From a virus: a DNA stretch of 64,000 nt. The notes beneath the pieces were generated by a model. It did no database searches. It was not told the origin of the DNA and saw only the letters and a list, made by a program, of their open reading frames with translations. Below, piece by piece: positions 3,705-56,416 of the stretch; positions within the stretch are counted from its first letter, which is position 1, and each line of letters begins with the position of its first letter. A program made the position numbers and the translations under genes. The DNA lies in UHGV virus genome UHGV-0351052. The stretch is one strand, 5' to 3'.

Positions 3705-4493
<789 letters not shown>

Positions 4494-4592
4494 TCATTTA
4501 TTGCAGCAAAAAACGAATTATACAATTCTTCATCATATGTATTTGATAATACTAACACGTTTTGCGATAAATATTAATTTAAAGGAGGATAC

Positions 4593-8904: not shown

Positions 8905-9249
8905 TTAAAAGAATTTAAATTTTTTCTTTGACCTTTTATTAAATGCATCTTGCAGTTGCATTGTAATACATTTTTCTACATGAGGAGCTAACTCAGCTTT
9001 TCTTTCTTGGTCAAGAACAGCAAAGTCCATTACAACCTTTCCATCAACCCAATCCAGTTTAGTTACATACACTATATGTGTAGAACCATCTTCTAGTTTA
9101 ATGACAATCTCCTGGATAACATTTTCCATAGCGGATTTAATTATCTTAAGAGACTCATTAAAAAGACGTTCTTTTCTTTCTTCTTCCCCCTCCGAAGAGG
9201 GGGATTCATCGATAATTTCTAGATCTAAATCTAAATCATCTTTACTCAT
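8905..9249 (-). CDS. 40: gp40 head vertex assembly protein (start uncertain)
   Basis: ORF between 41 and uvsX as in T4; internal Met chosen. Confidence 0.55.
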   Translation of the reverse strand: MSKDDLDLDLEIIDESPSSEGEEERKERLFNESLKIIKSAMENVIQEIVIKLEDGSTHIVYVTKLDWVDGKVVMDFAVLDQERKAELAPHVEKCITMQLQDAFNKRSKKKFKFF

Positions 9250-10423
9250 TAAATTCTTCCATATCACTTAACTGCTCGAGGTCAGTTTCTAAATCAGCAG
9301 CTGATTTACTTTTACTTTCTGGAGATTTAAATTTTTCAACCTTTGAGTTAATCAATTCATCAACTTCAGCTTCAACAATTTCATTACTATCAATAGCACC
9401 TAACTGATAAGCGCGTTTAATAGCATCTCGGAATGGTTGATGCTTAAATAAAGGACCCCAGAATGTAGTGCAGTTGGTATCTTTTGCACGCCAAGATTTT
9501 TCTTCGCGAATCATCTCGCCAGTTTCTTCGTCAAGAAATTCACGAGCATACCAGCCATTTTTAGGTTTTACTACAAATCCTAATTCTAGAGCCATATCTA
9601 ACAATCCAGAATAAGGATCGATACCACCGTCAAATTTAACATCAATAAAGAATTTACTTTTTTCTTTAACGGTACGAGATTTTTCTACATTTAGAACAAA
9701 TTGATACCCCTGAAGATCAGAACCATCTTTAATCTGACGCTTACCGATAATGAATACGGTATCAGCCGAATACATTACGCCTGTACCACCTGTCATCACG
9801 GTTTTACTAAACATTTCAATTGTTTCAATTGTATGGTTAACCGCAACACATGGAATATTTTTAATGCTAAAATAAGGAGTAACAATACGGAATAATGACT
9901 TCAGTGATTTAGCACGAGTCATATCTGCCACAGATTTTTCATTCAAGGCATCTTCCGTTTCTTTCTTAGAAGCCATATTACCGATTGAGTCGATGAATAC
10001 AATAACCTTTTCACCACGCTCAATAGCTTCAAGCTGGTTCACCATATCAATTTTCAGCTGTTCAACTGACTGAATTGGCGTATGAATTACTCGTTCCGGG
10101 TCAACTCCCATGGATCGCAAATAAGCTGGAGTAATACCAAATTCGCTATCATAGAATAGACAAACCGCGTCAGGATATTTGTTCAAATATGCCGCAACCA
10201 TAGTCAAAGACATATTTGATTTAAAGTGTTTAGAAGGCCCTGCGAAAATAGTTAAACCAGACTGCATACCGCCATCAATCGCACCAGAAATAGCGATATT
10301 AAGCATTGGAATTTTTGTACGAATTACATCCTTTTCATTAAAGAATTTAGATGTAGTCAGTTCAGCAGTCATTTTAGAAGTGGAAGCTTTAATCAAACGG
10401 GATTTTAAATCTGCAATAGACAT
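9242..10423 (-). CDS. uvsX: UvsX recombinase (RecA-like)
   Basis: 393 aa; C-terminal two thirds identical to remembered T4 UvsX, N-terminal third diverged. Confidence 0.9.
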   Translation of the reverse strand: MSIADLKSRLIKASTSKMTAELTTSKFFNEKDVIRTKIPMLNIAISGAIDGGMQSGLTIFAGPSKHFKSNMSLTMVAAYLNKYPDAVCLFYDSEFGITPAYLRSMGVDPERVIHTPIQSVEQLKIDMVNQLEAIERGEKVIVFIDSIGNMASKKETEDALNEKSVADMTRAKSLKSLFRIVTPYFSIKNIPCVAVNHTIETIEMFSKTVMTGGTGVMYSADTVFIIGKRQIKDGSDLQGYQFVLNVEKSRTVKEKSKFFIDVKFDGGIDPYSGLLDMALELGFVVKPKNGWYAREFLDEETGEMIREEKSWRAKDTNCTTFWGPLFKHQPFRDAIKRAYQLGAIDSNEIVEAEVDELINSKVEKFKSPESKSKSAADLETDLEQLSDMEEFNE

Positions 10424-10500
10424 TCATTTTTTCCATAGGCATCATTATATTTTCCTCACTGGTTAAAGATAGAGTAATTATAACACAATAAATTTAGGCA

Positions 10501-11349
10501 TTAATCAACTGCTATTGGATGAATAGCATTAAACTTATGAAATGCTTCTGATTTTTCTTTACGCGAAACACACATGCGAAGAACCTTTAATGGCTCGTCT
10601 TCTTCACCCAACGATTTTCGTTTTTCAATATTCGATGTTTTCCAACGAGCTTGCTCTGGAAACTCTCTATTGATTTGCTCAAGCGCTCTATTATGTTTAG
10701 AATTACTACGAATTGAACTACACCCACCGGGAGCGTGTGATTTTCCAGATACAACTAGATATTTGAACAAGGCCAAATGCGGATAACCTTGATTAATTAA
10801 ATTGAGAAATGCATACATATCTTCGCATAAATCAATTTTTCCATACCCAATTTGTTCTGTCGTAAGTTTTCCGAGGTCATACCATGTATTCGTGAATCCA
10901 TATGAGTTTTCACGATAATTACCCCAAGATGAAGTAATTTTAAAAATTGGTAGACGAGCATGACCGTGATAATACCCGCAATCCATGGCATCCTCAACGT
11001 ATTGAATCAATTCATAGAACTGTTCACGAGTTAATTGATTAATTTTATCTACGCGCCGTTTATCGTCTCTCTTTCGTATTGAACTCATACGAATAGTAGT
11101 ATCATCATCAATCATCCAGATTCGTTGACCTGCATACATATCAGTAATTGCTTTACGAGTACCGGCAATTCCGTTTACATCATCAGGAATAGTTACAATT
11201 TTAGCTCTAGACCCATAAGCATCATAATAAGCTTTTTCTTCGTGTTCACGCACTACAATATGGGGCTCATAATCAGTCGGAAACATATTAAGGGCAGAAA
11301 CTGCCCCTACACGCTGATAACTTGGAATTACGAATTGAATCATTTCCAC
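10501..11349 (-). CDS. putative glycosyltransferase (DxD motif) at the beta-gt locus; not T4 beta-glucosyltransferase
   Basis: 282 aa; RIWMIDDDTT motif; occupies T4 beta-gt position between uvsX and 42 but does not resemble T4 beta-gt. Confidence 0.5.
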   Translation of the reverse strand: MEMIQFVIPSYQRVGAVSALNMFPTDYEPHIVVREHEEKAYYDAYGSRAKIVTIPDDVNGIAGTRKAITDMYAGQRIWMIDDDTTIRMSSIRKRDDKRRVDKINQLTREQFYELIQYVEDAMDCGYYHGHARLPIFKITSSWGNYRENSYGFTNTWYDLGKLTTEQIGYGKIDLCEDMYAFLNLINQGYPHLALFKYLVVSGKSHAPGGCSSIRSNSKHNRALEQINREFPEQARWKTSNIEKRKSLGEEDEPLKVLRMCVSRKEKSEAFHKFNAIHPIAVD

Positions 11350-12080
11350 TCACCGTTATAATCTTTTTTCACAATATGAGTTTCGCCAGTATTCCACCAA
11401 TGATCAACCAAGTAAAAATGACGAGAATATACATGAAGACTTCCAACATTCCATATAATAGAACCTGCTTTATACTGACGAGTTGAATCGCCTGCATTCA
11501 AATCAGATACTAATTTATCTAATACGTATTTTTGCCATGCATAATCATTACGGAATCCGAAGACCACGTCATTTGAGCGCATGTTAACAACCGCATTGAC
11601 TTTCTTATCACGAATCAGGTACTGTACTGTATTAGTACACATGAAATCTGACATACCATCTTTATTGTAGTCAAATTGCATGGATGGACGAGTATAAATC
11701 ATGATACCACGTCGAGAATCAGGATTTTGACCAAGTTCAGCTAAACACATATCATACTGAGCATAGTTATCTTCTGACCAGATAGCCCAACCATAATTCG
11801 AGTTAATTTCGCCTTTAGAAGATGCTACTTGTTGCCAAATCTTTGGTGTTTCACCCGGAATATCTTTAACGAACAAGCTTTTAGATTTATACCATTCAAG
11901 TTCACGCTGAATGTATTCATCATTAAGAGCGCCAAAAATAAACGGTTCATCTGCTACAAATGATGCGCCAATAATTTCAATAGTTTTAACACCAGTTTTA
12001 TCAACTACGAAATCTTTTTCTTTTAATGCAAGCCCCAAATGAAGACGGATTTCTTCAACTGTCATAGAGTCACTAATCAT
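11340..12080 (-). CDS. 42: dCMP hydroxymethylase gp42
   Basis: 246 aa; matches T4 gp42. Confidence 0.9.
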   Translation of the reverse strand: MISDSMTVEEIRLHLGLALKEKDFVVDKTGVKTIEIIGASFVADEPFIFGALNDEYIQRELEWYKSKSLFVKDIPGETPKIWQQVASSKGEINSNYGWAIWSEDNYAQYDMCLAELGQNPDSRRGIMIYTRPSMQFDYNKDGMSDFMCTNTVQYLIRDKKVNAVVNMRSNDVVFGFRNDYAWQKYVLDKLVSDLNAGDSTRQYKAGSIIWNVGSLHVYSRHFYLVDHWWNTGETHIVKKDYNGEWK

Positions 12081-12087
12081 TTAAACC

Positions 12088-12237
12088 TCAATTGATACAT
12101 TCATATTTAACTTGTAACAGTAATAAACCCCAACCTAAAATAATAGTTGGAATCATAAGAGGAACCGTTACACTATAGTATATACTTATTATAATCATCA
12201 AGATTAAAAGCAATGCTGCTATAATTTTGCTTTTCAT
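12088..12237 (-). CDS. hypothetical small hydrophobic protein (49 aa, not in ORF track)
   Basis: Hand-translated MKSKIIAALLLILMIIISIYYSV...; ATGA overlap with imm stop. Confidence 0.35.
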   Translation of the reverse strand: MKSKIIAALLLILMIIISIYYSVTVPLMIPTIILGWGLLLLQVKYECIN

Positions 12238-12485
12238 TCCTTTTCTCTGATGATAATTACCTGATTTGGCTGTGCAGACTTTTTAGTTTCACCCGCAATT
12301 GACCAAATAAATGTAATAAACCAACCAATAATTGACCAGTTAAACAGTAAAGATGTGAAAAAGATTCCTACTGTCGATTTTGACCCACGCATCAAGGCAA
12401 TAAACCATGGAAGCATGTATATAATAATAGCCAACACACCTGAAACTAAAACCATAAAAATTGAACCTGCTACTAAAGTTTCCAT
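12234..12485 (-). CDS. imm: superinfection immunity protein Imm (membrane)
   Basis: 83 aa, two hydrophobic helices; matches T4 Imm. Confidence 0.75.
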   Translation of the reverse strand: METLVAGSIFMVLVSGVLAIIIYMLPWFIALMRGSKSTVGIFFTSLLFNWSIIGWFITFIWSIAGETKKSAQPNQVIIIREKE

Positions 12486-12873: not shown

Positions 12874-12883
12874 AATAATTTCC

Positions 12884-13132
12884 TCAAATGCAAGTAGTAA
12901 TTACTCCAGTAGTGCTTATGCAGGTATTACCCATTTGCACACCTAAAGATCCATTTGTATTCACATGAAGATTATCATCAATTTTAACTGATATTTTACC
13001 ATTAGTGTGAATAACGGTGCTAGATTTAATCACAGGTTGAGTATCATTTTCAACACTAACAAATGGAACTGCTACTAATGCAACTAAACACACTGCTAAG
13101 CAACCATAAACAATTTTCATTTCATTCTCCAA
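12884..13132 (-). CDS. putative secreted small protein (82 aa)
   Basis: N-terminal signal-like hydrophobic segment. Confidence 0.5.
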   Translation of the reverse strand: MENEMKIVYGCLAVCLVALVAVPFVSVENDTQPVIKSSTVIHTNGKISVKIDDNLHVNTNGSLGVQMGNTCISTTGVITTCI

Positions 13133-22955: not shown

Positions 22956-24158
22956 TTATTTTGTAATAATGTCAAACTGTTCTTTAAAGCAGAAGCTTGA
23001 ATCTTGATGCTGATACAAAAATTCATATGCTTTTTCTCGCTCACGGTCATAAAGAGCTCGGTCAGATGACAATTCTTTAATACGTTCAAATGTTGATTCC
23101 ATGTCATTTTCATCAAACCAAATGATACCACTATCATGTGAGGTCAAAGGAGTATTATCAACACGGAATTTTAAATTATCACCCGTTGATTTCCAGAAAA
23201 CAGGAATTGTTCCACATGCACCAAGCTCGAGATGAGTATATTCGAGTGAGCGTTGTAAGTATTTTTGGTTAAGTTTACTCAACTGATATCCAAAGCCAGA
23301 TTTACTCATTCGTTCAAGCATTTCACTATTAATATAACAATCTAGGATTTGTGCCGGTTGATTCGGCGTGAGATTCATTTTATCAATCTCACGATTACCA
23401 TAATATTCATACGGAATACCTTTTTCCTTAATTGCAATAAAAGCAGGGGAACGTTCAAGACCTTCCATTACAGTGGATTTACCAGCAGGTTTTAAGAATT
23501 TTTCGTGAAAATCAAACATCTGATAAAAACCTTTCCATGTAGTCGTACGACCAATCCAACGGTTGATGTTCATGTTAATTTCAGAAACATCTTTCCAATA
23601 AGTTGACCGAACCTTCACAATATCCATAGGAGGCTGAAAATTATATACTGTTGGTGCTTCTTCAATATCATCAAACAGAGAAACAGTTTCTGGATACCAT
23701 TCTTTCATCAGAACTTTATTAAAATCACCATTATCAGAATGGCTAAAAATAACGTCAGCTCGACGAACAGTTTCTTCTAATCCCAAATTTCGACGCAAAG
23801 AAAGAACAGAATGATCATGCTGATAAACTACAACACGAATAGAAGGTTTAATATTATCTAAAAGTTTTTTATAGTTATTAATCGTGGCTTCTTGAACGGA
23901 AGTAGCAGGAACAGAATTAATAATTAGAATATCACAATCATTTACCAGCTTAAGTGCTTTATCGTATTCTTTAGCTAAAATAACTGGAATTGAAAATGAT
24001 TTGTGGTCATGAGAACTTGTACGAGTAAATGATTTATCTTTAGCATAAACCAAAGTTACTTCATGACCATTTTTAATAAACCAATCACGCTGCTCAAGAG
24101 AAAATTTAGTTACACCGCAACCTTCAAGACCCCGAGCCAGAAAAATGCATACTTTCAT
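22956..24158 (-). CDS. a-gt: DNA alpha-glucosyltransferase
   Basis: 400 aa, nearly identical to remembered T4 alpha-gt. Confidence 0.9.
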   Translation of the reverse strand: MKVCIFLARGLEGCGVTKFSLEQRDWFIKNGHEVTLVYAKDKSFTRTSSHDHKSFSIPVILAKEYDKALKLVNDCDILIINSVPATSVQEATINNYKKLLDNIKPSIRVVVYQHDHSVLSLRRNLGLEETVRRADVIFSHSDNGDFNKVLMKEWYPETVSLFDDIEEAPTVYNFQPPMDIVKVRSTYWKDVSEINMNINRWIGRTTTWKGFYQMFDFHEKFLKPAGKSTVMEGLERSPAFIAIKEKGIPYEYYGNREIDKMNLTPNQPAQILDCYINSEMLERMSKSGFGYQLSKLNQKYLQRSLEYTHLELGACGTIPVFWKSTGDNLKFRVDNTPLTSHDSGIIWFDENDMESTFERIKELSSDRALYDREREKAYEFLYQHQDSSFCFKEQFDIITK

Positions 24159-55750: not shown

Positions 55751-56416
55751 TTAAAATTTCATTTTTCGACCTTTAAACCATCCTTCTGGAATTGGGTCAG
55801 TTTTCTTAATACGTTTAGAAACTTTTTCATCTAATGAATGAATCCACATCATACCAAATTGGGAATTCTTTTCGCCCTGTTGATGTTTATTTCTGGCGTG
55901 AGATTCTTTCATTTTATTAATAGTTTCAGGAGTATGGGTCTTACCCAAGAAAGATTTAGTATTTAAAAATTTCTCTCTATACTTAGGATTATCCCAAAGC
56001 TGTTTAAACCTTTCTGAACCCATTTTACGATATTTTTCTTTAAGGTCTGGGTCGTTCTCAAATCTGGTTTTAAAAGCGGCAGCTCCTTTTAAAGAAGCTT
56101 CTTTCTTTTTATCCAAATATTCTTTAGTGTTTAAATGGTCCCAACCACCTTCACCACCTAATTTCAAATTATAAACATCAGAGCGCTTTAAAAACTCTTC
56201 AGTCACAATATTCTTTTCTGACTCAAACATAGAGGTTTTATCGTCAAAGAACTCTAATATTTCTTTAGAAAAATTTTCTATACCATACTTATCTTGGGCT
56301 CTTTTTAATAATTTACCAGAACCCATATATCCATCATCTAAATTTTCGGTAGAATGAGCGCCTATATAGATTTTATTATTAATTTTATTTGTTATTTTAT
56401 AAATGTAATGGAACAT
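55751..56416 (-). CDS. segB: GIY-YIG homing endonuclease SegB
   Basis: 221 aa; N-terminal YIYKITNKINNKIYIGAH GIY-YIG motif; located between tRNA subclusters as in T4. Confidence 0.8.
   Translation of the reverse strand: MFHYIYKITNKINNKIYIGAHSTENLDDGYMGSGKLLKRAQDKYGIENFSKEILEFFDDKTSMFESEKNIVTEEFLKRSDVYNLKLGGEGGWDHLNTKEYLDKKKEASLKGAAAFKTRFENDPDLKEKYRKMGSERFKQLWDNPKYREKFLNTKSFLGKTHTPETINKMKESHARNKHQQGEKNSQFGMMWIHSLDEKVSKRIKKTDPIPEGWFKGRKMKF

Follow-up and report, generated by a model that had tools for sequence, protein, structure and literature searches.

The window, that is, the whole 64,000-nucleotide stretch of the virus genome UHGV-0351052 that we analyzed, is that of an ordinary Tequatrovirus and matches genomes such as HP3 and JEP6 at about 97% identity. 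On its minus strand an unbroken ORF at 10501..11349 lies between uvsX and gene 42, and in the ORF list and the sequence it carries GQRIWMIDDDTTIR. As the original prediction had described, this ORF contains the DxD motif RIWMIDDDTT. The length of 282 aa given there is correct for translation from GTG 11349, but this codon is the mechanical ORF start, two codons longer than ATG 11343, which is the likelier start and would yield 280 aa. We prefer the 280 aa product because ATG 11343 shares the sequence ATGA with the stop codon of gene 42 and is preceded, at a distance of 5 nt, by GGTGAG, and because T2, EL, Solly and other relatives are annotated from the equivalent codon. Along the minus strand, the DNA polymerase gp43, imm.1 and imm are located upstream of gene 42, followed by ba-gt and then uvsX. 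The features relevant to what follows are these:

10501..11343, minus strand: ba-gt (TAGT) coding sequence, probable glucosyl-DNA beta-glucosyltransferase (ORF list, T2/EL identity, PHROG 842, Pfam PF20691)
11101..11109, minus strand: DDD motif D79-D81, putative DxD metal and UDP-sugar binding site of a GT-A enzyme (family alignment; aligned to the DDDD of 9jma)
11311..11325, minus strand: PSYQR motif P7-R11, putative GT2-like nucleotide-binding beta1 loop (family alignment; aligned to the PTYNR of 9jma)
10412..11357, no strand assigned: segment without T4 nucleotide match, replacing the segA and beta-gt cassette (megablast against T4)
11340..12080, minus strand: gene 42, dCMP hydroxymethylase, synthesis of the hmC precursor (97.6% amino acid identity to T4 gp42; Pfam Thymidylat_synt)
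22956..24158, minus strand: alpha-gt, DNA alpha-glucosyltransferase, which makes the alpha-glucosyl-hmC acceptor (Pfam AGT, 3.4e-259; 395/400 to T4)
9242..10423, minus strand: uvsX recombinase, flanking landmark (Pfam T4_UVSX_C and RecA)

The GC content and skew of ba-gt are like those of its flanks, so that there is no compositional hint of recent foreign acquisition. The plus-strand ORFs that overlap it, of only 43-78 aa, were regarded as mechanical calls. A promoter and terminator scan of 10300-12400 gave counts not above those of shuffled sequences, and the single terminator-like hairpin, at 11289-11309, is inside the ba-gt coding sequence and was taken as a chance occurrence. A 77-bp spacer separates the ba-gt stop codon from the start of uvsX. 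Positions 10477-10500 of the minus strand read TGCCTAA-N11-TATAAT, which we take to resemble a T4 MotA-dependent middle promoter for uvsX, with a MotA box near -30 and a -10 element; the sigma-70 scan gave no hit there. Two small reading frames were noticed further upstream. One, at 12088..12237 (minus strand), codes for a very hydrophobic 49-aa product, lies between gene 42 and imm and overlaps the imm stop; EL and Solly carry it under the annotation 'Phage protein', and the interval is unannotated in the T4 and T2 records. The other, at 12884..13132 (minus strand; 82 aa, hydrophobic N-terminus, no Pfam match), is found where about 230 bp between imm.1 and gene 43 (12874-13101) have no T4 or T6 match in spite of flanks that align. 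The T2 alignment breaks there too, and a small ORF is annotated at this place in T2 (T2_046) and EL (EL_052).

In the comparison with T4 by megablast, the match stops at 10411 and restarts at 11358, at the 3' end of gene 42. The interval from uvsX to gene 42 is 1941 bp in T4 and 946 bp in the window (10412-11357). The original prediction had placed beta-gt at this locus in T4. The gene is indeed there, but T4 carries two genes, segA and beta-gt, where the window has ba-gt. The prediction was right in seeing no resemblance between the window protein and the 351-aa T4 beta-gt: the best BLASTP comparison of the two gave only E=4.1, and a tblastn search with T4 beta-gt across the whole 64-kb window produced no match at E<=10. 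The alpha-gt downstream is T4-like, as had also been proposed, with 395 of 400 residues identical, and gp42 is 97.6% identical at the amino acid level to the T4 dCMP hydroxymethylase. As to segA, it is absent from the uvsX-42 interval of the window. A separate tblastn match to T4 SegA was located at 56162-56413 on the minus strand (50% identity over 84 aa, E=4e-22), which presumably represents a further GIY-YIG homing endonuclease gene of the seg type, whole or in part.

The relatives of the window protein are clear. It is identical to T2 ba-gt at 270 of 280 positions (96%) in a gapless BLASTP alignment, and at the equivalent locus T2 is annotated as coding for a beta-glucosyl-HMC-alpha-glucosyltransferase, the T2/T6 activity that we take to be EC 2.4.1.28. 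Identities were 279/280 to EL, 272/280 to Solly and 268/280 to T6, so that the protein search against the T2/T6 enzymes, suggested originally, gave a positive answer. The single difference from EL is D19N, at a position that varies in the family. PHROG 842, 'beta-glucosyl-HMC-alpha-glucosyltransferase', was matched at 2e-88, and Pfam PF20691 TAGT ('TET-associated glycosyltransferase') at 40 bits against a gathering cutoff of 27.5, over residues 5-209, equivalent to profile positions 2-205 of 205. Searches of NCBIfam and PADLOC gave no matches. By tblastn, homologues were found in 689 phage records. At 95% protein identity or more there were 475, widely annotated as beta-glucosyl-HMC-alpha-glucosyltransferase, and about 200 at 60-80% identity belonged to T4-like phages of Klebsiella, Enterobacter, Salmonella and Citrobacter. 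The original prediction implied that the arrangement was rare, and in this it was mistaken. A 2026 survey (PMC13216743) found that most glucosylating phages have alpha-GT or beta-GT together with TAGT, while the T4-like pair of alpha-GT and beta-GT appeared in only 6 of 753 genomes. The window thus shows the usual arrangement: within Tequatrovirus, alpha-GT is normally accompanied by TAGT, and T4 is the exception.

No solved structure was detectably related to any member of the family in a sequence search of the PDB. An AlphaFold2 model built from a 10-sequence alignment reached moderate confidence (pLDDT 68.7, pTM 0.70), with pLDDT of 83-94 for residues 1-80 and below 50 in the loops 125-151 and 194-210. 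The original prediction had staked itself on a glycosyltransferase fold, and the window protein does have one, the GT-A (nucleotide-diphospho-sugar transferase) fold with the DDD motif. For the T6 TAGT, too, a published AF3 model shows a GT-A fold, sister to GT2 (PMC13216743). In the family profile alignment to the GT2 enzyme AvpGT (PDB 9jma), PSYQR corresponds to PTYNR and DDD to DDDD. An exhaustive profile search retrieved 2159 clusters of relatives at 50% identity, from which 153 representatives were aligned. D79 was found in 151, D80 in all 153 and D81 in 146 of them, and R11 in all 151 sequences ungapped at that column. Ten residues (R11, R63, D79, D80, D81, D175, G186, G206, G207 and R212) were kept in 93-100% of the representatives, at least 98% except for R63 (93%) and D81 (95%), and all ten are present in the window protein. 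By analogy with GT2 enzymology, the DDD motif would bind a divalent metal and UDP-glucose, and D175, within a C-E-D motif, is a candidate for the catalytic base of an inverting transfer. These data establish the identity and fold of the enzyme, the integrity of its invariant residues and its genomic context.

We conclude, with a probability of about 0.93, that the window gene is a T2/T6-type beta-glucosyl-HMC-alpha-glucosyltransferase (ba-gt, also g-gt or 'TAGT') that makes gentiobiosyl-hmC. The original idea of a second sugar added onto alpha-glucosyl-hmC, as in T2 and T6, is supported by the 96% identity to T2, the PHROG 842 match and the GT-A fold with DDD. The donor, acceptor, linkage and modification ratio would be those described in the literature for near-identical enzymes, and on that basis the pathway would have three steps. 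Gene 42 would provide hm-dCMP, and hmC would be built into the phage DNA; the T4-type alpha-gt, a GT-B enzyme, would then put alpha-glucose on about three quarters of the hmC; and the metal-dependent, inverting GT-A enzyme with its DxD motif would use UDP-glucose to attach a second glucose to the alpha-glucose through a beta-1,6 linkage, which would give gentiobiosyl-hmC. Since ba-gt would be inactive on naked hmC, some hmC would be left bare and no beta-glucosyl-hmC would be formed.

Published data for the relatives agree with such a pathway. T2 and T6 are without beta-gt, and their ba-gt adds a beta-linked second glucose to alpha-glucosyl-hmC; of the hmC, about 5% is gentiobiosylated in T2 and 72% in T6, and about 25% stays bare (bioRxiv 10.64898/2026.02.25.707755; PMC13216743). 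In ten new Tequatrovirus isolates LC-MS detected hmC, alpha-glucosyl-hmC and alpha-gentiobiosyl-hmC and no beta-glucosyl-hmC, and the authors considered the TAGT gene at the T4 beta-gt position to be responsible for the second glucose; the DNA of EL gave gentiobiosyl-hmC and no beta-glucosyl-hmC by the same method (PMC13390438). It could be argued that the window enzyme is instead a functional analogue of T4 beta-gt, glucosylating in beta configuration the naked hmC at sites that alpha-gt leaves free. It sits at the exact beta-gt locus, it would likewise be inverting and UDP-glucose-using, and the existence of solitary TAGT homologues in phages devoid of alpha- and beta-GT means that some members must use acceptors other than glucosyl-hmC (PMC13216743). 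However, phages with a 97-99.6% identical enzyme lack detectable beta-glucosyl-hmC, and 20-33% of their hmC remains unmodified (PMC13390438), and T6 delta-ba-gt (g-gt) DNA contains alpha-glucosyl-hmC only (PMC11078745; bioRxiv 10.64898/2026.02.25.707755). We consider direct beta-glucosylation highly improbable.

Transfer of a sugar other than glucose, such as the arabinose of RB69/Bas46-type phages, would lead to a non-glucose hypermodification. Arabinosyltransferases were named for comparison in the original prediction, and TAGT-family enzymes of other viruses reportedly attach a variety of glycans (bioRxiv 10.1101/2023.12.21.572611). Yet the window protein is 96-99.6% identical to enzymes of phages with only glucose and gentiobiose on their DNA (PMC13390438). 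The gp42 of the window is, at 97.6% identity, a T4-type hydroxymethylase and not of the 5-hydroxy-dCMP synthase type that marks arabinosylation in Mosigvirus, the RB69-type phages (PMC13390438). Taken as a whole, the window shares about 97% identity with ordinary Tequatrovirus genomes. This alternative is extremely improbable.

The extent of di-glucosylation among phages with ba-gt goes from 5% to about 70%, and we compared the window enzyme with those of eight phages characterized by LC-MS. V50, I89, K95, R97, I101, S202 and H203 are common to the window, EL, BGP and Geo, and these three phages contain hmC, alpha-glucosyl-hmC and gentiobiosyl-hmC at about 1:2:2 (PMC13390438). Solly, CP, EH2, TB37 and Some have I, M, R, C, V, A and Q at the seven positions, as do T6 and T2; in the five, hmC accounts for about one third and gentiobiosyl-hmC for about two thirds, with little of the mono-glucosyl form (PMC13390438). 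Because the window enzyme is 279/280 identical to that of EL and has the same haplotype, the virion DNA of the window phage is predicted to show a ratio of about 1:2:2. A tentative extension, which we hold to be possible but doubtful, is that the ba-gt alleles set the extent of second glucosylation, with the window/EL haplotype giving 1:2:2, the I/M/R/C/V/A/Q haplotype near-complete di-glucosylation and the T2 R11H allele 5%. The correlation comprises three phages against five, plus T6, and is confounded by phylogeny. The seven positions are variable among the 153 family representatives, so conservation lends no independent support to the haplotype lowering activity. That the alpha-gt allele fixes the mono/di ratio was also considered and is judged less likely: the alpha-gt of T6 and EL are 397/400 identical yet the ratios differ, and that of Solly is divergent (368/400 to EL) yet its ratio is T6-like.

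Some reference records have alterations in ba-gt. Both T2 records (NC_054931, 3007-3849; AP018813, 2283-3125) have R11H and P251S. In the T6 record MH550421 (4138-4980), codon 10 is changed from CAG to TAG and the gene is annotated from a downstream Met, giving 261 aa, and in AP018814 (2135-2980) one Asp of the invariant DDD is lost (WMIDDTT). The T6 lesions are either drift of laboratory stocks or sequencing errors. As read from the T2 records, a hypomorphic ba-gt allele may be a simple explanation for the ~5% of gentiobiosyl-hmC in T2 against 72% in T6. Damage of this kind, that is, the amber codon 10 and the missing Asp of T6 and the His at Arg11 in T2 with its ~5% gentiobiosyl-hmC, appears to be tolerated, and the window gene could be present but inactive or weak, as apparently in some laboratory stocks, leaving the DNA essentially mono-alpha-glucosylated. 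But the window ORF is full length, Q10, R11, DDD and the other invariant residues are intact, and the EL enzyme, identical at 279 of 280 positions, yields about 40% gentiobiosyl-hmC (PMC13390438). An inactive allele is very improbable, and we retain an active ba-gt as the preferred reading.

Publications already cover the enzyme and its product, fold class and distribution, and the window gene adds no new biology. The experiments proposed originally have in effect been published for near-identical relatives (PMC13390438; PMC11078745). The small new points are the correlation of the window haplotype with a mixed mono/di pattern and the His that the T2 allele has at a family-invariant Arg. The locus matters because a phage is open to different host defences depending on whether its hmC is mono- or di-glucosylated. 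Alpha-glucosyl-hmC is excised by Brig1, gentiobiosyl-hmC is not, and T6 delta-ba-gt has a raised sensitivity to this glycosylase (PMC11078745). The BapA glucosidase is unable to strip glucose from gentiobiosyl-hmC (bioRxiv 10.64898/2026.02.25.707755), and GmrSD-type enzymes cut all these hmC forms (bioRxiv 10.64898/2026.02.25.707755; PMC13216743; PMC11078745). As the glucosyl state governs the access of these defences, recognizing ba-gt allows the defence-sensitivity profile of a phage to be predicted. Such a predicted profile is useful for the choice of therapy phages.

Among the known systems, T4 beta-gt occupies the same chromosomal position as the window enzyme, and both would have in common UDP-glucose as donor and inverting stereochemistry. 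They differ in fold, GT-B in T4 beta-gt and GT-A in the window enzyme, and, as predicted, in acceptor, which is hmC for the former and would be alpha-glucosyl-hmC for the latter. The cellular GT2-family GT-A enzymes (the BcsA catalytic domain, AvpGT 9jma, TarP and SpsA) are only 6-17% identical to the window enzyme, whose acceptor, unlike theirs, would be a sugar carried by duplex DNA. They offer no clear counterpart to the C-terminal third of the window enzyme (approximately residues 214-280), which was modelled with low confidence. Much closer is Escherichia phage vB_Eco_EL (EL, OZ034682), with 279/280 identity in ba-gt and 397/400 in alpha-gt. EL, BGP and Geo, a group of the Durham Collection, have the same ba-gt haplotype as the window and, like it, a dam gene. 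In the window the Dam methyltransferase is encoded at 3705..4484 (TIGR00571, 6e-70), and T4 also has dam. A mark of EL, BGP and Geo is an extra 'restriction enzyme-like' gene beside dam (EL_034 in EL), which is missing from the window at about 4561-4568. From the T2 and T6 enzymes the window ba-gt differs in the haplotype V50 I89 K95 R97 I101 S202 H203, found in neither, and in D19N, and it is free of the R11H and P251S of T2 and of the lesions of the two T6 records. In T2 and T6, ba-gt (g-gt, TAGT) is located between uvsX and gene 42 and codes for 280 aa, as in the window, and its partners alpha-gt and gp42 are also present here.
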